A stretch of DNA of 35,852 nucleotides from a virus (lineage: Duplodnaviria; Heunggongvirae; Uroviricota; Caudoviricetes), in IMG/VR virus record IMGVR_UViG_2778261246_000001, positions 1 through 35,852 of that record. One strand, written 5' to 3'. The notes beneath the pieces were generated by a model. That model was given only the letters and a program-made list of their open reading frames with translations, did not search any database and was not told the origin of the DNA. Below, piece after piece: positions 3,901-19,652 of the stretch (positions within the stretch are counted from its first letter, which is position 1; every line of letters starts with the position of its first letter). A program made the position numbers and the translations under genes.

Positions 3901-4059
3901 AGCTTTAAAATAGCTGCTCAGTTTTTTACCTGACTTAACGATCAGGTAGTCCAGAGTGGCACAGGTCGATTCAAAATCGTCACTTGCCCACAGGACGACG
4001 TCAGGTTCACCGGATGATTTTTTCGCTTTCCGTAACAGGAAGAGTGGTTTTGTGCTCAT
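988..4059 (-). CDS. recE: Exodeoxyribonuclease VIII (RecE family), 1023 aa
   Basis: N-terminus [26 protein letters not shown]... matches my recollection of Rac RecE; central acidic linker with a CxxC...CxxC zinc-ribbon-like cluster; C-terminal domain consistent with the RecE nuclease region. Confidence 0.85.
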
Positions 4060-4160
4060 TGTTTTTTAACCTCAACTCAGATTAAAATTCGTTTTGTTCA
4101 GTGAATGATCTTGCCGGATACACACTGTTCATAGCCTGCGCCATACGCAGGCTATTTCTT

Positions 4161-4436
4161 TCAGATTTCACCTTTTAATTTCATTGCAATCAGAGTTGCC
4201 AGAAATCCGGCTTTTTTTTCTGCGGGCAGATTCTTTCCGATATGCACCAGGCTCATTTTTTTGACACCTTCGTGAAGTGTTTTAACGTTGCCTGATGGAC
4301 CGTCGATATCAACTACAGTGAATGGGGTTTCTTTATTTTCTGTTTTAATCACGTAGCCAATACGCTTTCCTTCCAGATTAACTTCGTGAACAATGTCATC
4401 AGTAGTTACAACAGTGGCTTCATAACTGGTAATCAT
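4161..4436 (-). CDS. racC: RacC-like small protein (91 aa from internal ATG)
   Basis: ORF 4161..4484; the internal Met (MITSYEAT...) is preceded by SD AAGGAGA at good spacing; position between recE and ydaE/kilR as in Rac. Confidence 0.65.
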   Translation of the reverse strand: MITSYEATVVTTDDIVHEVNLEGKRIGYVIKTENKETPFTVVDIDGPSGNVKTLHEGVKKMSLVHIGKNLPAEKKAGFLATLIAMKLKGEI

Positions 4437-4510
4437 GTTTTTCTCCTTAATTAAGGTTGAGCGAATCCCTGCCATTGCTGGCATAAATTCAGTTTCGCAT
4501 AGTCAGTTAA

Positions 4511-4681
4511 TTAAAGTTCGTGTGCCATCTGGTCTTTTTCGGCACATATTTCACTACAATATTTTTTCATTTCCGTCGTTGGGATAACTCCACGCATGAA
4601 ATGAAGTGGTCTTTTAATGCTTTTGCTTTCTTTAACTTCTTTATCGCAAAGGTGGTAAGCACATTTTATTTTCTTAGTCAT
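4511..4681 (-). CDS. ydaE: YdaE-like small Cys-rich (putative metal-binding) protein, 56 aa
   Basis: Not in the ORF track (under 60 aa). Minus-strand translation [56 protein letters not shown]; its ATG overlaps the kilR stop (ATGA, 4679-4683). Confidence 0.6.
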   Translation of the reverse strand: MTKKIKCAYHLCDKEVKESKSIKRPLHFMRGVIPTTEMKKYCSEICAEKDQMAHEL

Positions 4682-4902
4682 CACCATGACTCCGCCTTTA
4701 CAGGTAAACCATCACGACCGAGGAAGACTTTAATCATGCAGTCAGTAATGCATGTTTTTGTGGTCAGGTTACGAATATAAAGCTTTCGCTTTTTAATATT
4801 GTTTGCCGAGGCAATATATGTCCGGCCTTCATGAAGAACATAATCGCCAGGAGTCACACACTGACGTGGTATTTCATCAGTTCCGAAGTGATGTGCAATC
4901 AT
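4681..4902 (-). CDS. kilR: KilR-like killing protein / cell-division inhibitor (73 aa)
   Basis: Sequence [46 protein letters not shown]... matches recalled Rac KilR; SD GGAGA 6 nt upstream of the second in-frame ATG. Confidence 0.75.
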
Positions 4903-5343
4903 AATTATCTCCATTTTTACAAATGAACTTTGTTGATGCGGTGCCTGGTGCCTCCAGGTGACTGCAACCAGTTAACAATTACAGTCGGCTTTCCCACCCA
5001 AACCAATAAGGACTAACATGACTTTTAACTGTGCCACGTGCGCTTAGCCGCATTCACCGCATCACAAAACTCACTTTAAAAAGGGCGGACATCAGCCGAA
5101 CTTCAAGAAAAAAACTGATGCCGCCAGGACTACACACAGCAATGTCGTTATTTACAACCGGAGGCGCACTCCCACCATTTAAATTTAACAGACAAGACCG
5201 ACTCTTTATGGATATCGGAAATGCGCCTTCGTGTTGTGCCCGGTTTTATTTCACCACCTCCGGGCTTCGGTGGTCTCGGCTATACCCCTACAGCGAGAGC
5301 TTGTGTTAACATTTCAATACCCTTACAGTTGAGAGTTATTGAT

Positions 5344-5832
5344 ATGTTGGATGTATTTACTCCATTGTTGAAACTTTTTGCTAACGAGCCACTCGAAAGA
5401 CTTATGTATACGATTATCATTTTTGGTCTCACTCTCTGGCTGATACCGAAAGAGTTTACTGTCGCATTCAATGCTTATACTGAAATACCTTGGCTCTTTC
5501 AGATTATCGTTTTTGCCTTTTCTTTCGTGGTCGCCATTTCCTTCTCAAGATTGCGAGCACATATTCAAAAGCATTATTCATTACTACCAGAGCAACGAGT
5601 ATTGCTTCGTTTATCTGAGAAAGAAATCGCTGTATTTAAAGATTTCCTTAAAACAGGAAATCTTATTATCACTTCTCCTTGCCGTAACCCGGTTATGAAA
5701 AAATTAGAACGGAAGGGCATCATTCAACATCAGAGTGATAGCGCAAACTGTTCTTATTATCTCGTCACCGAAAAATACTCCCATTTTATGAAGTTATTCT
5801 GGAACAGCAGGAGTAGACGTTTTAATCGTTAG
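5344..5832 (+). CDS. sieB: Superinfection exclusion protein B (SieB), 162 aa
   Basis: Internal start MLDVFTPLLKLFANEPLERLMYTIIIFGLTLWLIPKEF...; hydrophobic N-terminal segments; divergent from the kil operon as in Rac. Confidence 0.8.
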   Translation: MLDVFTPLLKLFANEPLERLMYTIIIFGLTLWLIPKEFTVAFNAYTEIPWLFQIIVFAFSFVVAISFSRLRAHIQKHYSLLPEQRVLLRLSEKEIAVFKDFLKTGNLIITSPCRNPVMKKLERKGIIQHQSDSANCSYYLVTEKYSHFMKLFWNSRSRRFNR

Positions 5833-5984
5833 CTTACTGTGTGCTTCTCCAACCATCGGCGCGCACCAGTTTCGGTTTTAAATGTTTTGCTTTTGGTATA
5901 CGTCATGGCAGTGAACGTTCCATCCTGGTTGGGGAACACGCCGCACACCAGGGATTCGTTGTTGCCGAGGTCGATTTTTTGCAT
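5829..5984 (-). CDS. ydaF: YdaF-like small protein, 51 aa
   Basis: Not in the ORF track. Minus-strand ORF MQKIDLGNNESLVCGVFPNQDGTFTAMTYTKSKTFKTETGARRWLEKHTVS; overlaps the sieB stop by 4 nt; Rac synteny. Confidence 0.5.
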   Translation of the reverse strand: MQKIDLGNNESLVCGVFPNQDGTFTAMTYTKSKTFKTETGARRWLEKHTVS

Positions 5985-5994
5985 TTTGCGAATC

Positions 5995-6129
5995 TCACAT
6001 CTTGTTGCTACGTATAGCGACTTCTGCCTGCCAGAGATCCCAGTCGTTGCTGCGTAAAGCCTGCACAGCCTGGTTGTAAGTGATACCGCAACAATCCATC
6101 AAATACTGAACTACTTCGTAATGCACCAT
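5995..6129 (-). CDS. ydaG: YdaG-like small protein, 44 aa
   Basis: Not in the ORF track. Minus-strand ORF MVHYEVVQYLMDCCGITYNQAVQALRSNDWDLWQAEVAIRSNKM immediately upstream of ydaF. Confidence 0.5.
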   Translation of the reverse strand: MVHYEVVQYLMDCCGITYNQAVQALRSNDWDLWQAEVAIRSNKM

Positions 6130-10622: not shown

Positions 10623-10768
10623 CGAGATTAAAGTGCATTAGTTCAGATGCAAATTGACATTTTGTGGCACAGGGTAGAGCTAGCGTGGTTGTCCGCTTTG
10701 TGCCAACAGCGGACATTATAGATGGTATATGTAGAAAGTGAACATGCGTAGATTGTATGATTTAGCCG

Positions 10769-11578
10769 TCACTTAATTATTGGATAACTCACACAAGTAT
10801 GACCGTTGCTTATCGCATACATTTGGTTTCCCTTAAGATTTACAAATGGAAATGTCGTATACTCATAATTTATAGAGGTCATATTAAATGTAAGGAATTT
10901 ATCTTCAAGTTCTAATTTTGTAGAGTGGGCAGGGTATGTTCCTTCATTTTTCATTGTGATAATAAAACCGATAGGAAAAAAATGTAAAGCACAAATAAAT
11001 GCCACATGTCCTTCGTTCATAAATGCTACACTTTGAGCGGATATGTGCATTCTGTGTGGGTAAAACCAGTAGTAAATATCATGAGTTTCCTCAAAACTTG
11101 AATTTTTACCCAAAACATAATCCTTTAAAGGTGTATAGAAGGGGCTATCTACGGGTTCTTTTTTACAATCTTCAACTGAAGTTGCTGATAGCACGTGCCC
11201 AATCATAGCCTTAGTGAAAGATATGCTATCAAAAGGTATTCTAATGAATGGATATACATTCATACCATTCATATATCGACTTAACTGTTCTTTAAAGGAC
11301 TTTGTTACATTTTCAATTGCAACATCGAGCCCACCTAATACCTTATTGTTACAGTGGCTGCAAATGGTTCTGAAATAAGAGCCATTTTTAGCATTTAATG
11401 GTTTAACTGGTTCCTGAATACCAAAAAATTCGCTAACTGTTTTCTGCAAAACAGGGCCTAAGGTTATGGCGCACTTTGGAGGAACATGATCTTTTGTGAG
11501 CAAGCCATATTTCCCACAAATATTGCAATAACCTTCAGTAATGCCATTGTGCTTCCATCGTTCACTAATTTTCGTCAT
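10769..11578 (-). CDS. HNH-nuclease-like zinc-finger protein with uncharacterised C-terminal domain, 269 aa
   Basis: Intact ORF with SD GAGGGA 7 nt upstream; N-terminal C18-x2-C21...D30-H31-VPPK...C73-x2-C76-N77 is consistent with a bba-Me/HNH fold; sits alone in an AT-rich island. Confidence 0.6.
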   Translation of the reverse strand: MTKISERWKHNGITEGYCNICGKYGLLTKDHVPPKCAITLGPVLQKTVSEFFGIQEPVKPLNAKNGSYFRTICSHCNNKVLGGLDVAIENVTKSFKEQLSRYMNGMNVYPFIRIPFDSISFTKAMIGHVLSATSVEDCKKEPVDSPFYTPLKDYVLGKNSSFEETHDIYYWFYPHRMHISAQSVAFMNEGHVAFICALHFFPIGFIITMKNEGTYPAHSTKLELEDKFLTFNMTSINYEYTTFPFVNLKGNQMYAISNGHTCVSYPIIK

Positions 11579-11762
11579 TTTTATTCCCTCAGTAGCATAA
11601 GCTATCTATACGTTTTTTAATCCTATCAAAGATACAACTTAACGTCAGGAAAATGATAGTGTTTATCTAAGTAATACAATTAACTTCAACGCGTGACAGT
11701 CTGCTTTTCGCTCAAAGCGGACTAGAAGGTTAGCTTGCGTCGGACTTGGCGTATTTAAAGAA

Positions 11763-11987
11763 GTGCTGGTGGTGACTGGTTGTTGTGTTCCATTTCTACA
11801 GAATAAAATCACAGAAACTATACCCAATAGTTGTATTGAATCACTGACGAGACAGCCTCATATTTATCAGGACTGGTGTGCGTCTAATACAGGGGGTTGT
11901 CGTGCTGGTTCTCAAATGTGCGCTGGCTATTGCGGCTGTAATGGCAATTTATTGTCTTGCTGTTGTTCTTATGGAGCGGCTTTCTGA
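11763..11987 (+). CDS. Questionable small Cys-rich ORF (74 aa, GTG start)
   Basis: 11 Cys in 74 aa (..CASNTGGCRAGSQMCAGYCGCNGNLLSCCCSYGAAF); no ATG start and no convincing SD; may be a TG-rich chance frame. Confidence 0.15.
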   Translation: MLVVTGCCVPFLQNKITETIPNSCIESLTRQPHIYQDWCASNTGGCRAGSQMCAGYCGCNGNLLSCCCSYGAAF

Positions 11988-12138
11988 TTGATTACATACT
12001 GGCTAGAAAAAAGGTGTTACCTTGGTTTATCTTTGTCCGGCAAGGTGCGCTCATTAATCTTAAGTAAATTTATTGCTCAAGTATTCAGATTACTTCTTAT
12101 GGTTGAAGTCTCCTGTCAATGTAGAACCAATATATTTA

Positions 12139-12175
12139 CAAAAATGAGACCCGTCGGGGATAGCCCTGCCGGGTC
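12139..12175 (-). terminator. Putative rho-independent terminator downstream of the YeaR-like gene
   Basis: Arms AGACCCG / CGGGTCT (12146-12152, 12169-12175) with a T-run on the minus strand (complement of 12139-12145). Confidence 0.4.
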
Positions 12176-12205
12176 TGACTGTTAAAGCATTTTTAATATG
12201 ATCAT

Positions 12206-12544
12206 CTATTTTTTGGTGCTATAGACTTTTTCGCCCGAGAAGTCTGGAGCGACCCAAAAGTTAATATTAAACTGAGCATCATCGCTTAGTTCAACACGGT
12301 GCCAGTATTGTGGTGGGCTTGTTGCAAAAGCGCCAGCATTAATGACTACTTTTATCTCCGGTTCAGTAGCATTCTCATCAGTAAAACCATAATATGTTAC
12401 AGTGCCTTCCATTACGCACAACTGCCCAAAAACACCTGCTGCTGTATTATGATGTGTTAATAACGCTGAAGGTACGTTCTCTTTTGTGAAGAACGGAGTT
12501 GAGCGTTTGATTACCCAATCTTTAGGAATTCTCTTGTGTGTCAT
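12206..12544 (-). CDS. YeaR/DUF1971-family protein, about 112 aa
   Basis: Aligns by eye with recalled E. coli YeaR (RSTPFxxK...GxVxYxGxxDExxxEPxxxVxIxAGxFAxxPPxxWHxxExxxDxxFNIxFxVAP); strong SD GAGGAGG 5 nt before the internal ATG. Confidence 0.6.
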   Translation of the reverse strand: MTHKRIPKDWVIKRSTPFFTKENVPSALLTHHNTAAGVFGQLCVMEGTVTYYGFTDENATEPEIKVVINAGAFATSPPQYWHRVELSDDAQFNINFWVAPDFSGEKVYSTKK

Positions 12545-13357
12545 AACCACCTCCTCAAAAACATGCATTATAAATGCGTGTTTTTGAGGGTTATGTCAAG
12601 CTGTTATGAAACACATAATTGATATGTTGATTAGAGGAGAAGATATAATAAATATGGTTGTTTTTCGTATAACTATTTGTTTTACTTTTAGTTTATGCAT
12701 TCTGTGTGTTAGGAATAAGTTATTAAAGTTTAATAAAAAAATCTCGATGTAGTCCACATAGATTATTGTTACTGAACCTTATTGTGTGTATTAGTTGTGT
12801 TCTGAAATTTCAGCTTAATTATTTATGATGTATTTTTTAACGATAAATATTTTCCCAGGATACCTTTACTGTGTATATAAATAAATTATATACACATAAA
12901 TAATGTAAAGGCGTCCTTTTAGATATATCTTATCAAATGTTAATGACTTGAGTGGGAAATATGATTCCAGCAACTTATCATGTGGCTACTTTATAAAAAT
13001 AATGCCCATATAAAACAACAAGCGAAAAGGATTACGGATAAAAAAGGAGCGAGATGTGCGAACTTGTTATTTTCCATGTTTAACCACCTTAAATAATTGA
13101 TGATGACGGGATGATTGCATCTGTAATGCTTTTATTGAAATGTTATGATAAAAAAGAACTTTTGCATAACATTAAAATGTAATTTATCTAATCGTTTTTA
13201 ATAATAAATGTCGTATTTCTATCCTTGTACCAGCTATTTGATATGTAGTGTTTGTTCATGCTATGTGGGGCTTTACACCATAGCCAGTTTATTTATACTT
13301 TATTCGTCAGCCTGAACAACTGGCATCTGCTGCGCTGCGCCATCGAGAGATTGAGAA

Positions 13358-13957
13358 ATGGCGCATATACAACTGGTCAAACAAACCTCTTCTGGTTTAC
13401 TTCTCCCGGCGACGCCGGAGAGTTGCGATTTTTTGCATCAAATCAAAATAGGTGAGTGGATACACGCAGACTTTAAGCGTGTGCGTAACTACGCATTCCA
13501 CAAGCGTTTTTTCAAACTCCTGCAACTGGGATTCGATTACTGGACTCCGGTCGGTGGGGCGATCACGCCTCGCGAACGAAAACTGGTATCGGGCTTCGTT
13601 GATTACCTGTGCGAATCAGTAGGTCGGGAACACACTCCAGCCCTGAGTGATGCCGCAGAGCAATACCTTAATACCGTTGCGACATGCAGAACCCGGGATA
13701 CGGCATTGCTAAAGTCGTTTGACGCTTTCCGCGAGTGGGTAACCATTCAGGCAGGATTTTACACCGAGTATATTTATCCTGATGGTAGTCGTGGGCGCAG
13801 GGCAAAATCTATCGCATTTGCGAACATGGACGAAACCGAGTTTCAGCAGGTTTATAAATCTGTACTGAATGTGCTGTGGAACTGGATCCTGTTCCGTAAA
13901 TTTTCCTCTCCGGAGGAAGTCGAAAATGTGGCCGCACAGTTACTGGAGTTTGCGTAA
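13358..13957 (+). CDS. Nin-region phage protein (DUF1367-like), 199 aa
   Basis: Intact ORF with an ATG start; position between the accessory island and the YbcO-like gene; family assignment from memory only. Confidence 0.5.
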   Translation: MAHIQLVKQTSSGLLLPATPESCDFLHQIKIGEWIHADFKRVRNYAFHKRFFKLLQLGFDYWTPVGGAITPRERKLVSGFVDYLCESVGREHTPALSDAAEQYLNTVATCRTRDTALLKSFDAFREWVTIQAGFYTEYIYPDGSRGRRAKSIAFANMDETEFQQVYKSVLNVLWNWILFRKFSSPEEVENVAAQLLEFA

Positions 13958-14247
13958 TGGTGGATTTACGTAAAGCGGCGCGGGGGCAGATGTGCACCGT
14001 CAGAATTCCTGGCTACTGCAATCACAATCCCGAAACATCTGTGCTGGCGCATTACAGGCTGTCGGGGACGTGCGGAACAGCGACAAAACCACACGATATG
14101 CAGGCGGCGATTGCCTGTAGCTCATGCCACGATTTAATCGACGGGAGAGTAAAAACCAGCGATTACACCAAAGAAGAATTACGCCTGATGCATGCAGAAG
14201 GTGTTTTTCGCACACAAGAAATCTGGAGAAAGGAAGGTTATTTATGA
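13957..14247 (+). CDS. YbcO-like (DUF1364) putative nuclease, 96 aa
   Basis: Cys/His pattern (CxVRIPGYCN...ETSVLAHYR...CSSCHDLID) resembles recalled DLP12 YbcO; start overlaps the upstream stop (TAATG). Confidence 0.6.
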   Translation: MVDLRKAARGQMCTVRIPGYCNHNPETSVLAHYRLSGTCGTATKPHDMQAAIACSSCHDLIDGRVKTSDYTKEELRLMHAEGVFRTQEIWRKEGYL

Positions 14248-15113: not shown

Positions 15114-15189
<76 letters not shown>

Positions 15190-15192
15190 TAT

Positions 15193-15267
<75 letters not shown>

Positions 15268-16667: not shown

Positions 16668-17128
16668 ACAGAGTAACCGCGATTATCTCCGCTCTGGTTA
16701 TCTGCATCATCGTCTGCCTGTCATGGGCTGTTAATCATTACCGTGATAACGCCATTACCTACAAAGCCCAGCGCGACAAAAATGCCAGAGAACTGAAGCT
16801 GGCGAACGCGGCAATTACTGACATGCAGATGCGTCAGCGTGATGTTGCTGCGCTCGATGCAAAATACACGAAGGAGTTAGCTGATGCGAAAGCTGAAAAT
16901 GATGCTCTGCGTGATGATGTTGCCGCTGGTCGTCGTCGGTTGCACATCAAAGCAGTCTGTCAGTCAGTGCGTGAAGCCACCACCGCCTCCGGCGTGGATA
17001 ATGCAGCCTCCCCCCGACTGGCAGACACCGCTGAACGGGATTATTTCACCCTCCGGGAACGACTGGTAATAATGCAGGCCCAACTTGAAGGTGCTCAGCA
17101 ATACATAACCGAGCAGTGTTTAAAGTAA
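16664..17128 (+). CDS. Rz-like i-spanin, 154 aa
   Basis: Start overlaps the endolysin stop (ATGA); N-terminal TM segment then coiled-coil-like, charged periplasmic domain. Confidence 0.75.
16884..17069 (+). CDS. Rz1-like o-spanin lipoprotein embedded in the +1 frame of Rz, 61 aa
   Basis: Signal peptide with lipobox LVVVGC and a proline-rich mature part ([18 protein letters not shown]); entirely inside Rz. Confidence 0.65.
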
Positions 17129-17265
17129 AATCTTAACTACAATATGATTCATTTTGATGATTGTTTCATAAGGAACAGTGAAGTAAGATCTAAGAGGAGT
17201 TAAATTTTATACAGTATAATCATAATATTGCAGCAAGGTGGTTATAATTGAAAGAATATTTAGAT

Positions 17266-18723
17266 ATGAATACATCTCATGTAAGAGTTGTTACTCATAT
17301 GTGTGGGTTCTTGGTTTGGCTTTATAGTCTTTCAATGTTGCCACCAATGGTTGTAGCATTGTTTTATAAAGAAAAAAGCCTGTTCGTTTTCTTTATAACT
17401 TTCGTTATATTTTTTTGCATTGGTGGCGGAGCGTGGTATACAACTAAGAAATCTGGCATTCAATTACGTACCCGTGATGGGTTTATTATAATTGTAATGT
17501 TTTGGATTTTGTTTTCTGTTATTAGTGCATTCCCTTTATGGATTGACTCAGAACTTAATTTAACGTTCATTGATGCTCTGTTTGAAGGGGTTTCTGGAAT
17601 AACAACAACAGGAGCAACTGTAATTGATGATGTTAGTTCATTACCTCGGGCATATTTGTACTATCGGTCACAGTTAAATTTTATAGGTGGTTTAGGAGTT
17701 ATTGTTCTGGCGGTTGCAGTATTGCCATTATTGGGTATTGGTGGTGCAAAGCTTTATCAGTCAGAAATGCCGGGGCCATTTAAGGATGACAAACTCACTC
17801 CCCGCCTGGCCGATACGTCACGGACACTGTGGATAACTTATTCTTTATTAGGTATTGCTTGTATTGTCTGTTATAGACTTGCAGGAATGCCTTTGTTTGA
17901 TGCTATTTGTCACGGGATTTCCACAGTTTCGCTTGGTGGTTTCTCAACTCATAGCGAGAGTATCGGATATTTTAATAACTATTTGGTTGAGCTGGTGGCT
18001 GGTTCTTTTTCCCTGCTATCGGCTTTCAACTTCACTCTTTGGTATATTGTTATTAGCAGAAAAACGATAAAACCTTTAATCAGAGATATTGAACTTCGTT
18101 TCTTTCTGTTAATAGCCTTAGGGGTGATCATTGTTACCTCTTTCCAGGTCTGGCATATAGGTATGTATGACTTGCATGGAAGTTTTATTCATTCGTTTTT
18201 TCTTGCCAGCTCCATGCTCACTGATAATGGTTTAGCTACGCAGGATTATGCAAACTGGCCCACGCACACGATAGTGTTTTTGCTGTTGTCAAGTTTCTTT
18301 GGGGGATGTATAGGTTCAACCTGTGGTGGAATTAAGTCACTTCGATTTCTTATACTTTTCAAACAAAGCAAACACGAGATAAATCAGCTTTCTCATCCCA
18401 GAGCGTTGTTGAGTGTAAATGTAGGAGGGAAGATAGTTACAGATCGTGTAATGAGGTCTGTATGGAGTTTCTTTTTTCTTTATACTCTCTTCACGGTGTT
18501 TTTTATACTGGTGTTAAATGGTATGGGATATGATTTTCTTACATCATTTGCAACAGTGGCTGCATGTATTAATAATATGGGATTAGGTTTTGGGGCTACT
18601 GCATCGTCATTCGGAGTGCTTAATGACATTGCAAAGTATTTAATGTGCATAGCTATGATTCTTGGTCGCCTTGAAATTTATCCTGTTATTATATTGTTTT
18701 CAGGTTTTTTTTGGCGCTCCTAA
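17266..18723 (+). CDS. trkG: TrkG potassium uptake protein (TrkH/TrkG family), 485 aa
   Basis: Polytopic membrane protein matching recalled Rac TrkG (MNTSHVRVVTHMCGFLVWLYSL...); markedly AT-rich relative to neighbours (moron). Confidence 0.85.
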   Translation: MNTSHVRVVTHMCGFLVWLYSLSMLPPMVVALFYKEKSLFVFFITFVIFFCIGGGAWYTTKKSGIQLRTRDGFIIIVMFWILFSVISAFPLWIDSELNLTFIDALFEGVSGITTTGATVIDDVSSLPRAYLYYRSQLNFIGGLGVIVLAVAVLPLLGIGGAKLYQSEMPGPFKDDKLTPRLADTSRTLWITYSLLGIACIVCYRLAGMPLFDAICHGISTVSLGGFSTHSESIGYFNNYLVELVAGSFSLLSAFNFTLWYIVISRKTIKPLIRDIELRFFLLIALGVIIVTSFQVWHIGMYDLHGSFIHSFFLASSMLTDNGLATQDYANWPTHTIVFLLLSSFFGGCIGSTCGGIKSLRFLILFKQSKHEINQLSHPRALLSVNVGGKIVTDRVMRSVWSFFFLYTLFTVFFILVLNGMGYDFLTSFATVAACINNMGLGFGATASSFGVLNDIAKYLMCIAMILGRLEIYPVIILFSGFFWRS

Positions 18724-18860
18724 TATATGGCTGATTTATAATTGTGAGTTTAATATTATGTTGACTCACTCATTGATCCAATACCTAACTTTACCAGCAA
18801 CACCTCCGCCCCCAGTAGCACTGGCTGCTGGGGTGCGTTTTATTCATAAAGCAAGGCTGT

Positions 18861-19652
18861 ATGAGCGAGAAATTAAAGATAGTCTATCGCCCATTACAAG
18901 AATTGTCACCGTATGCGCACAACGCCAGGACGCACAGCCCTGAGCAGGTGGCACAACTGGTAGAAAGTATTAAGCAATTCGGCTGGACTAATCCGGTGCT
19001 GATTGACGAAAAGGGCGAAATTATTGCGGGTCACGGTCGTGTTATGGCGGCTGAAATGCTCAAAATGGATTCTGTTCCGGTCATTGTTCTGTCTGGCCTG
19101 ACGGATGAGCAGAAAAAGGCGTACCGCCTGGCAGATAATCGCCTGCCGATGAATGCTGGCTGGGATGAAGATCTGTTGCGGATGGAGCTGTCGGACCTAA
19201 TCAATGCTGATTTTGATGTCTCCCTGACAGGCTTCATCCCGACAGAAATTGATGAACTGTTGACGGATGTTTTGCCCGGTACAGGAAATGAGGAGGAGCC
19301 GTATACGACGAAAATTGATACGCCTGTTTATGAGCCGTCGGGCGGTAAACCGGATATCAGTGAACTGTACGACGATACGAAAACTCAGGAGCTGATCAGC
19401 CGGATACGTTCGGCGTCCCTTGAGCCTGATATTGAGAAATTCCTCCTGTGTGCGGCAGAACGTCACACGGTGTTTAATTTCAGCAGAATTGCGGACTATT
19501 ACGCTCACGCCCCCGCTGAAATTCAGTGTTTTTTCGAGGAGTCGGCGCTGGTGATCATTGATTATCAGCAGGCTATTGAAAATGGATTTGTCCGGATGAC
19601 GCAGCGCATGGTGGAGATCATGCATGGTGGTGAGGAGGAGGAATATGCGTGA
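18861..19652 (+). CDS. ynaK: ParB-like nuclease-domain protein, 263 aa
   Basis: N-terminal ParB/Srx-like motif (..NPVLIDEKGEIIAGHGRVMAA..LSGLTDEQKKAYRLADNRL); acidic C-terminus; symbol by analogy with the Rac ynaK fragment, from memory. Confidence 0.65.
   Translation: MSEKLKIVYRPLQELSPYAHNARTHSPEQVAQLVESIKQFGWTNPVLIDEKGEIIAGHGRVMAAEMLKMDSVPVIVLSGLTDEQKKAYRLADNRLPMNAGWDEDLLRMELSDLINADFDVSLTGFIPTEIDELLTDVLPGTGNEEEPYTTKIDTPVYEPSGGKPDISELYDDTKTQELISRIRSASLEPDIEKFLLCAAERHTVFNFSRIADYYAHAPAEIQCFFEESALVIIDYQQAIENGFVRMTQRMVEIMHGGEEEEYA

Follow-up and report, generated by a model that had tools for sequence, protein, structure and literature searches.

A hairpin-bounded cassette of a Rac-like prophage encodes a predicted HNH_5-type nuclease and is a candidate anti-phage defence locus

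The virus record IMGVR_UViG_2778261246_000001, a stretch of 35,852 nucleotides (nt) that was analysed at its full length and is called the window here, corresponds to a Rac-like prophage of Escherichia coli. Between its replication genes and its nin-side genes it carries a gene for a protein of 269 amino acids (aa), which lies in a discrete cassette of 1032 base pairs (bp), 10691..11722, with a hairpin at each end. The protein is predicted to contain an N-terminal HNH_5-type His-Me finger and belongs to a large family in which the remaining two thirds match no described domain. From the places in which the gene is found we favour, with moderate confidence, a role in anti-phage defence or superinfection exclusion. 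An earlier sequence-only reading of this DNA had described the gene as an intact minus-strand open reading frame (ORF) with its own Shine-Dalgarno sequence, and both can be read directly from the sequence. The features of the cassette are the following.

10769..11578, minus strand: coding sequence of the 269-aa protein, an intact ORF with an ATG start, read from the sequence
11279..11545, minus strand: predicted HNH_5-type His-Me finger, residues 12-100, from hhalign, invariant residues and the secondary structure of a model
10772..11278, minus strand: helix plus beta-meander region, residues 101-269, family-specific, with conserved G127-H128, W171, Y173, P202 and P244
11585..11590, minus strand: Shine-Dalgarno sequence GAGGGA, 6 nt before the ATG, read from the sequence
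11579..11698, minus strand: 5' region that travels with the gene and presumably holds its own promoter, with 86 to 144 nt kept in other contexts
10691..10714, plus strand: left boundary hairpin, 24 nt, GTCCGCTTTGTGCCAACAGCGGAC, with a 'type A' loop, 55 nt downstream of the gene's stop codon
11699..11722, plus strand: right boundary hairpin, 24 nt, GTCTGCTTTTCGCTCAAAGCGGAC, with a 'type B' loop, from homology breakpoints, motif match and folding

The translation contains the motifs C18-x2-C21, D30-H31-V-P-P-K35 and C73-x2-C76-N77 with the spacing that had been noted earlier, and this pattern is not due to chance, for it persists in 65 homologues whose identity to the window protein is 20-45%. 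Among them C18, C21, H31, P33, P34, C73, C76 and N77 are invariant, while D30, D85 and H128 are at least 94% conserved (D30 at 94%). Nearly everything that an N-terminal profile search retrieved was a truncated copy of the family, but the search also brought in P0279, a protein with a precomputed PF14279 domain. P0279 has the pattern C-x2-C-x8-TRDHVPPE...C-x2-CN-x6-DE, which is like that of the window protein with a shorter spacer, and its retrieval made possible a decisive comparison with PF14279 proteins. When the alignment of the window family (A2) was compared by hhalign with an alignment of 37 members of the P0279 family (A4), the match had a probability of 95.6% and an E-value of 1.2e-8 over 64 columns, and it covered both halves of the motif, bridging a 20-residue insertion in the window family. 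The PF14279 proteins of A4 are about 220 aa long and have the N-terminal motif C-x2-C-x8-(T)xDHVPPK ... C-x2-CN-x(5-7)-D in common with the window family, whereas the window family has about 20 extra residues, including a helix at 42-51, between the two strands of the finger.

An AlphaFold model built on 38 sequences had a mean predicted local distance difference test score (pLDDT) of 87.4 and a predicted template modelling score (pTM) of 0.89. In this model, strand 24-32 ends with D30-H31, strand 67-73 follows, and helix 74-81 starts with C73-x2-C76-N77, with N77 in its first turn. Residues 1-105 modelled alone without an alignment gave a pLDDT of 41.6. By remote homology, motif conservation and the order of secondary structure, and not by a curated threshold, the N-terminal part is predicted to be an HNH_5-type His-Me finger, with a predicted four-Cys structural zinc site of the treble-clef kind formed by two CxxC pairs (C18, C21, C73 and C76).

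Several results weigh against this assignment. The Pfam HNH_5 model (PF14279) scored the window protein at 11.6 bits in a direct scan, which is below its cut-off of 27.5 bits (E 0.29), and aligned it over profile positions 1-21 only. A scan with NCBIfam gave no significant match to the window protein, and neither the full-length nor the N-terminal profile reached a solved HNH structure when searched against PDB chains. Comparison of the N-terminal profile with one sequence of T4 endonuclease VII, verified against published residue numbers only, gave an hhalign probability of 2%. The failure of the Pfam model can be attributed to the insertion of about 20 residues between the two strands. Sub-threshold HNH_5 matches occur in 26 of 38 close homologues and in 36 of the 65 distant ones, with a best E-value among the 65 of 9.8e-5; weak Endonuclease_7 matches are found in 5 of the 65, and no other Pfam family recurs in more than three members. 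The direct Pfam scan by itself therefore yields no significant HNH hit, an outcome that the sequence-only reading had said would count against it, and the assignment was rescued only by the profile-profile comparison.

Residues 101-269 match no Pfam family in either the window protein or the 65 homologues, and a structure search with the model matched the C-terminal part to no solved structure and to no predicted viral one. By hhalign, the window family and the PF14279 family are unrelated in their C-terminal halves, and the two families show no detectable relation over their C-terminal two thirds. This agrees with the earlier statement that the remainder of the protein has no recognisable motif. 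We propose that the C-terminal part is a region for recognition of a target or a trigger. In an exhaustive profile search, 1798 clusters (at 50% identity) reached E-values of 0.001 or below, 352 of them 1e-30 or below, and among 150 clusters listed nearly all are 255-300 aa long and aligned end to end. The N-terminal profile search found no case, at this closeness, of the N-terminal domain joined to other domains. A family of such uniform full length, along with the pTM of the compact model, points to one integrated unit and not to a loose fusion, so the earlier description of a nuclease head fused to an unknown domain overstated the modularity of the protein.

The window protein is identical to RefSeq WP_000161640.1 and belongs to PHROG 21495, a family of unknown function. 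RefSeq names for this protein and its homologues vary among 'hypothetical protein', 'chaperonin' and 'metal-binding protein'; the 'chaperonin' label looks like a propagated misannotation, as nothing in the sequence or the model supports it. The ratio of nonsynonymous to synonymous substitution rates between the Rac-borne allele and an allele carried by P2-like phages is 0.14, which shows the protein to be under purifying selection. We infer that the gene has its own promoter within 11579..11698, where a weak sigma-70-like match (CTGACG-17-TAGGAT) was found by eye; a consensus scan upstream of the gene found no strong or clear promoter, which counts against this.

Of 5426 complete E. coli genomes, 141 (2.6%) carry the gene, in 120 chromosomal and 29 plasmid places. 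In Rac-like prophages, including that of the window, it occupies the slot after DUF977. The same slot holds it in a Qin/DicB-like lambdoid prophage, where DUF968, RusA and Q follow and the DUF1971 gene of the Rac-like context is missing, and the Rac-like and Qin-like copies at this site are 99.2-100% identical in nucleotide sequence. An allele of 94.8% identity lies between the tail-fibre assembly gene G and the sheath gene FI of P2-like phages, namely phage pro147 and a prophage of strain E189. A further context is a chromosomal array of betT, DUF2254, a gene for a 476-aa protein and a short integrase of 200 aa (WP_001752951.1, annotated 'site-specific integrase'), followed by the HNH gene. 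The same array, cut by the insertion sequence IS26, is carried on plasmids of E. coli, Klebsiella, Shigella sonnei and Enterobacter that are mostly typed as conjugative, and a protein at least 99% identical is encoded in 48 plasmid records of PLSDB. On the Shigella sonnei plasmid examined, the neighbours of the HNH gene include mph(A) and mrx(A), which are genes for macrolide resistance. The pair betT-DUF2254 is also found in the slot downstream of DUF977 in a Qin-like prophage (L018), which suggests that the array of the plasmids and of the chromosomal island originated from this slot.

More distant homologues are found in a variety of mobile settings. That of Vibrio adjoins a filamentous prophage and a DUF2726 gene, that of Pseudomonas lies in an island between serine recombinases, and that of an Enterobacter prophage is beside terminase genes on the opposite strand. 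The Motilimonas homologue shares a small island with genes for Tox-MPTase4 and KptA/HTH, and the Plesiomonas homologue is among genes for HEPN_AbiU2, SduA_C (Shedu), PLD/NgoFVII and Fic proteins. In Serratia fonticola the homologue lies between the integrase gene and psu of a P4-like satellite, and in Photobacterium it adjoins an integrase-like gene and an AAA_15/21 ATPase gene. No neighbour of the HNH gene is conserved across the at least 12 contexts examined; it always stands alone, and always on mobile DNA. The earlier view of a single gene in a variable cargo region of the prophage is borne out.

The hairpins that bound the cassette follow the consensus GTCCGCT-N10-AGCGGAC, a 24-nt imperfect palindrome with two loop types. 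Only two matches with up to two mismatches occur in the 35.8-kb window, versus 0.05 expected, and DNA folding gives the left hairpin -9.3 kcal/mol (z -4.2) and the right hairpin -6.8 kcal/mol (z -4.1). The segment in common with the chromosomal island and the plasmids is 10699-11722 (99.8% identity), that in common with the P2-like phages is 10691-11664 (94.5%), and a sister Rac-like prophage in E. coli VTB96816v, which carries the defence system PD-T7-3, shares the flanks up to 10717 and again from 11700. The left homology breakpoints at 10691, 10699 and 10717 thus fall inside the hairpin or within 3 nt of it. The same pair of hairpins bounds the PD-T7-3 cassette (L015 1692-1715 and 3542-3565), and the same hairpin bounds betT-DUF2254 both in the Qin-like prophage (L018 4004-4027 and 7677-7700) and on a plasmid. 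It also occurs in L014, one of the plasmid and island records with the array, at 5931, 5973 and 7581, and a type-A hairpin is found at the left edge of the Z/fun slot of phage P2, directly after gene G (L006 1836-1859). Hybrid hairpins were seen, among them GTCTGCT...AGCGGAC versus GTCCGCT...AGCAGAC and, in the island, one with a replaced left arm, and these locate crossovers inside the hairpin.

Across the 5426 E. coli genomes, the type-A hairpin is present in 3333, in 4420 places of which 156 are on plasmids. It is absent around the homologues in other genera, which ties the hairpin to the slots of enterobacteria rather than to the gene. The hairpins are not canonical intrinsic terminators, as they have no U-tract on either strand. 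The attC sites of integrons are defined by GTTRRRY / RYYYAAC cores, and the hairpins lack these as well. We expect that the boundary hairpins act as exchange points for cargo modules, possibly as the site for a recombinase or a structure-specific nuclease, or possibly as a short conserved linker for recombination of the RecET/Red type.

What else occupies these slots is the main argument for a defence role. In the VTB96816v prophage, the validated defence gene PD-T7-3 replaces the segment with the HNH gene while the flanks are unchanged. PD-T7-3 is among the names given in the 2022 study of Vassallo et al., a report of 21 experimentally selected defence systems of E. coli (PMC9519451). It was recognised in the prophage by PADLOC with E-values of 1e-137 and 2.4e-24, split in two ORFs. 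It occupies the same hairpin-bounded slot, between DUF977 and DUF1971. Its relation to the window protein is one of position (allelic cargo) and not of homology, as judged from the lack of a match between the window protein and the PADLOC model for PD-T7-3. The two ORFs (L015 2012-3055 and 3058-3378, of 347 and 106 aa) together cover the 432-position PADLOC profile and represent either a disrupted copy or a two-ORF variant.

The G-FI locus is listed as a defence hotspot of P2, described as 'the Z/fun locus' and as lying 'within the tail genes' (PMC13586616), and P2 itself carries there the lysogenic-conversion gene fun(Z), annotated as blocking T5. P2 Fun(Z) is encoded in the same slot as the P2-borne allele of the HNH gene, antisense between G and FI, and is a protein of 528 aa without similarity to the window protein (BLASTP E 0.32). 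The int-psu locus of P4, in which the Serratia fonticola homologue lies, is an anti-phage hotspot defined by Rousset et al. (PMC9122126). Three of the locations of the HNH gene are established anti-phage hotspots. The gene additionally has traits like those of lysogenic-conversion genes, being AT-rich, antisense to the phage early operon and provided with its own ribosome-binding site.

There are also points against a defence role. A scan of the window protein with PADLOC-DB v2.0.0 returned 0 families at E-values of 1 or below; the earlier remark that the protein could not be placed in a described family is upheld, since PADLOC, Pfam and NCBIfam all gave no match. The lambdoid slot is moreover used by non-defence cargo, including betT-DUF2254, relBE/hokD and an acetyltransferase gene, so it appears to be a general accessory slot, and location in it is suggestive rather than specific. 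In strain UTI89, the slot downstream of DUF977 holds two adjacent genes for proteins of 320 and 333 aa (L017 4127-5089 and 5105-6106), followed by hokD. Neither protein has a PADLOC match, and both are candidates for further cargo or defence genes.

In the defence reading that we favour, the gene would be a stand-alone accessory ('moron') gene expressed from a resident prophage, satellite or plasmid. Its product would be a zinc-stabilised, metal-dependent nuclease of the HNH_5 type whose N-terminal His-Me finger cuts nucleic acid, with D30 and N77 holding the metal, H31 acting as the general base and the four Cys residues holding the structural zinc. The conserved, beta-rich C-terminal part would decide what gets cut, or when. 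Given a small protein that is found in many hosts and comes with neither a partner nor an antitoxin nor a methyltransferase, we lean towards direct recognition of a feature of foreign DNA, in the manner of type IV restriction, over an abortive-infection switch. Carriage across several genera without an adjacent antitoxin or immunity gene also suggests that the protein does no harm to its hosts.

Among the closest known systems is McrA of the e14 prophage, a type IV, modification-dependent HNH restriction enzyme (PDB 6ghc). The window protein resembles McrA-like type IV enzymes in its predicted HNH_5-type head and in having no methyltransferase nearby, but it has no recognisable reader of modified bases (SRA, EVE/PUA-like, McrA-N, SBD or DUF262) by Pfam or fold match. 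Groups 1 and 8 of the His-Me finger classification of Jablonska et al. 2017 (PMC5714182) are also among the closest known to the window family. The group with PF14279 only is given no function in the classification table of that paper and is not discussed in it (PMC5714182). T4 endonuclease VII and Hpy99I (PF02945) have the same order of zinc and catalytic residues, CxxC, DH, CxxCN, in a different overall architecture.

A different account of the same observations is that the protein is a selfish, free-standing HNH homing endonuclease, which would cut empty slots, perhaps at the hairpins or near them, so that repair copies the cassette in to the benefit of the gene itself and not of the host. 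The HNH-type assignment, the sharply defined ends of the cassette and the near-identical copies at the same site in the Rac-like and Qin-like lineages would all fit such a process. However, the hairpins also bound the PD-T7-3 and betT-DUF2254 cassettes, which have no HNH gene, and this shows that the gene is not required for exchange. Distant homologues in other genera lack the hairpins, and the slots in P2, P4, plasmids and islands have unrelated flanks. The gene is antisense to phage operons and AT-rich, as are lysogenic-conversion genes. It is intergenic, with no intron or intein context of the kind that the sequence-only reading had said would point to homing, and no NUMOD, IENR or other homing DNA-binding module was found in the protein or its homologues. 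We consider homing distinctly unlikely.

The protein could instead be a structure-specific DNA-processing nuclease, such as an enzyme that resolves junctions or cruciforms in the way of T4 endonuclease VII, that belongs to the recombination toolkit of the nin region and serves the element itself. In T4 endonuclease VII the corresponding residues are C23/C26, D40/H41 and C58/C61/N62, which the CxxC...DH...CxxCN layout of the window protein parallels. The weak Endonuclease_7 matches among the homologues would agree with this, as would the position of the slot just upstream of the nin-region genes (DUF1367 and YbcO/DUF1364 in the window; DUF968, RusA and Q in the Qin-like prophage). The hhalign comparison with endonuclease VII nevertheless gave only the 2% noted above, and the best homology is to HNH_5. 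Presence in so small a fraction of E. coli genomes, replacement by unrelated cargo in sister prophages, and an orientation and composition that mark foreign cargo are not what a core phage function would show, and the gene is also carried on plasmids and in the P4 satellite hotspot. A resolvase is, on this evidence, very unlikely.

We give similarly little credence to a protein that is inactive as a nuclease and uses its treble-clef zinc finger only for binding DNA or protein, as a regulator or adaptor. The curated HNH thresholds are unmet, and no fold match confirms the geometry of an active site. On the other hand, H31, N77 and the four Cys are invariant and D30 nearly so in 65 divergent sequences, while loss of the catalytic His or Asn is usual in HNH domains that have degenerated.

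Least probable of the four is a toxin of an addiction module resembling toxin-antitoxin systems, with an unannotated small RNA or peptide in the cassette as antitoxin, which would stabilise the element with or without abortive infection. A lone putative nuclease on plasmids and prophages would be in keeping with this; the slot elsewhere holds relBE and hokD, and the conserved leader of 86-144 nt travels with the gene. But no second ORF confined to the cassette was found and none is conserved, the Rfam scan of the window matched only tRNA families, and nothing points to an antisense RNA.

Three further classes were rejected. An HNH protein for packaging, like HK97 gp74, does not fit a gene that is also on plasmids and that lies about 10 kb upstream of the terminase genes in the prophage of the window; the sole prophage in which it abuts terminase genes has it on the opposite strand. 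A colicin-type toxin or a toxin-antitoxin system with a partner was set aside as no gene for an immunity protein or an antitoxin is conserved next to it. Likewise rejected was an orphan of a restriction-modification system; no methyltransferase is annotated or Pfam-matched next to the gene in 12 or more contexts.

The window is 99.98% identical to and colinear with a Rac-like prophage of E. coli LR-21-1, and the sole gap in the alignment is an IS1A element in the LR-21-1 record. The gene order before the island that holds the cassette is intR, xisR, ralR, recT, recE, kilR, sieB, racR, ydaS, ydaT, ydaV, DUF1627 and DUF977, and after it DUF1367, DUF1364/YbcO, DUF1133, two tRNAs, lysis genes and trkG. 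This colinearity confirms the earlier placement of the island, with the replication genes on one side and the nin/Q block on the other. The G+C content (GC) of the cassette is 35.5%, and that of 11723-13357 is 35.7%, as against 50.2% in the flanking replication genes and 47.9% in the nin-side genes. The AT-rich island that had been placed at 10630-12600 is therefore present and is longer than was thought, ending at about 13350. Besides the HNH cassette it holds a second module, a DUF1971 gene.

12206..12568, minus strand: DUF1971 (TehB N-terminal-like) gene, 120 aa, from a Pfam match to PF09313 (2.6e-26)

The DUF1971 gene is retained where PD-T7-3 replaces the HNH cassette and is absent beside the HNH gene in the Qin-like, P2-like and plasmid contexts, and it is thus a separate module. 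After it come about 790 bp of very AT-rich DNA (12569-13357) with ORFs of 67 aa at most and a GC of 28% at 12501-13000. Directly downstream of the island are DUF1367 (13358-13957, plus strand) and YbcO/DUF1364 (13957-14247, plus strand). YbcO is a putative nuclease of His-Me finger group 7, to which DUF968 also belongs (PMC5714182). In the Qin-like prophage the slot is followed by DUF968 and RusA, so that structure-specific nucleases adjoin the hairpin-bounded slot. The two tRNA genes of the prophage are at 15114-15186 and 15193-15264 on the plus strand (Rfam, 73.8 and 67.8 bits) and are annotated as tRNA-Thr and tRNA-Gly in a near-identical RefSeq prophage. Other AT-rich stretches of the window, at about 4000-6000 and 17000-19000 (GC 0.36-0.43), are by colinearity the kilR-sieB region and trkG.

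A single-gene nuclease of a prophage in a defence hotspot is of a familiar kind, whereas the family, its C-terminal fold and the hairpin-bounded cassette are, as far as we found, undescribed. A literature search found no relevant paper on WP_000161640.1, phrog_21495, HNH_5 or the hairpin sequences, and the supplements of DefensePredictor and of Rousset 2022 do not contain the accession numbers. A bolder possibility, which we regard as unlikely, is that the protein founds a new single-protein defence family with a C-terminal sensor or reader of a fold not seen before, and that the hairpins are at the same time the sites of a dedicated, integron-like recombination process that would recognise a defined site or DNA structure and shuffle cassettes, with defence genes or other accessory cargo, among lambdoid prophages, P2-like phages and conjugative plasmids of enterobacteria.

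If the protein is protective, a compact single-gene system of 269 aa with a new recognition domain would join the catalogue of defence systems, and a function would be gained for about 1800 sequence clusters that are blank in Pfam, NCBIfam and PADLOC v2. Since the identical gene is found next to IS26 on conjugative resistance plasmids, it could alter how susceptible clinical strains are to phages, a point of relevance to phage therapy. The hairpin-bounded cassettes give a concrete way to test how unrelated temperate phages and plasmids exchange accessory genes, and the hairpin itself is a simple sequence signature for finding more cargo and defence candidates in prophages.

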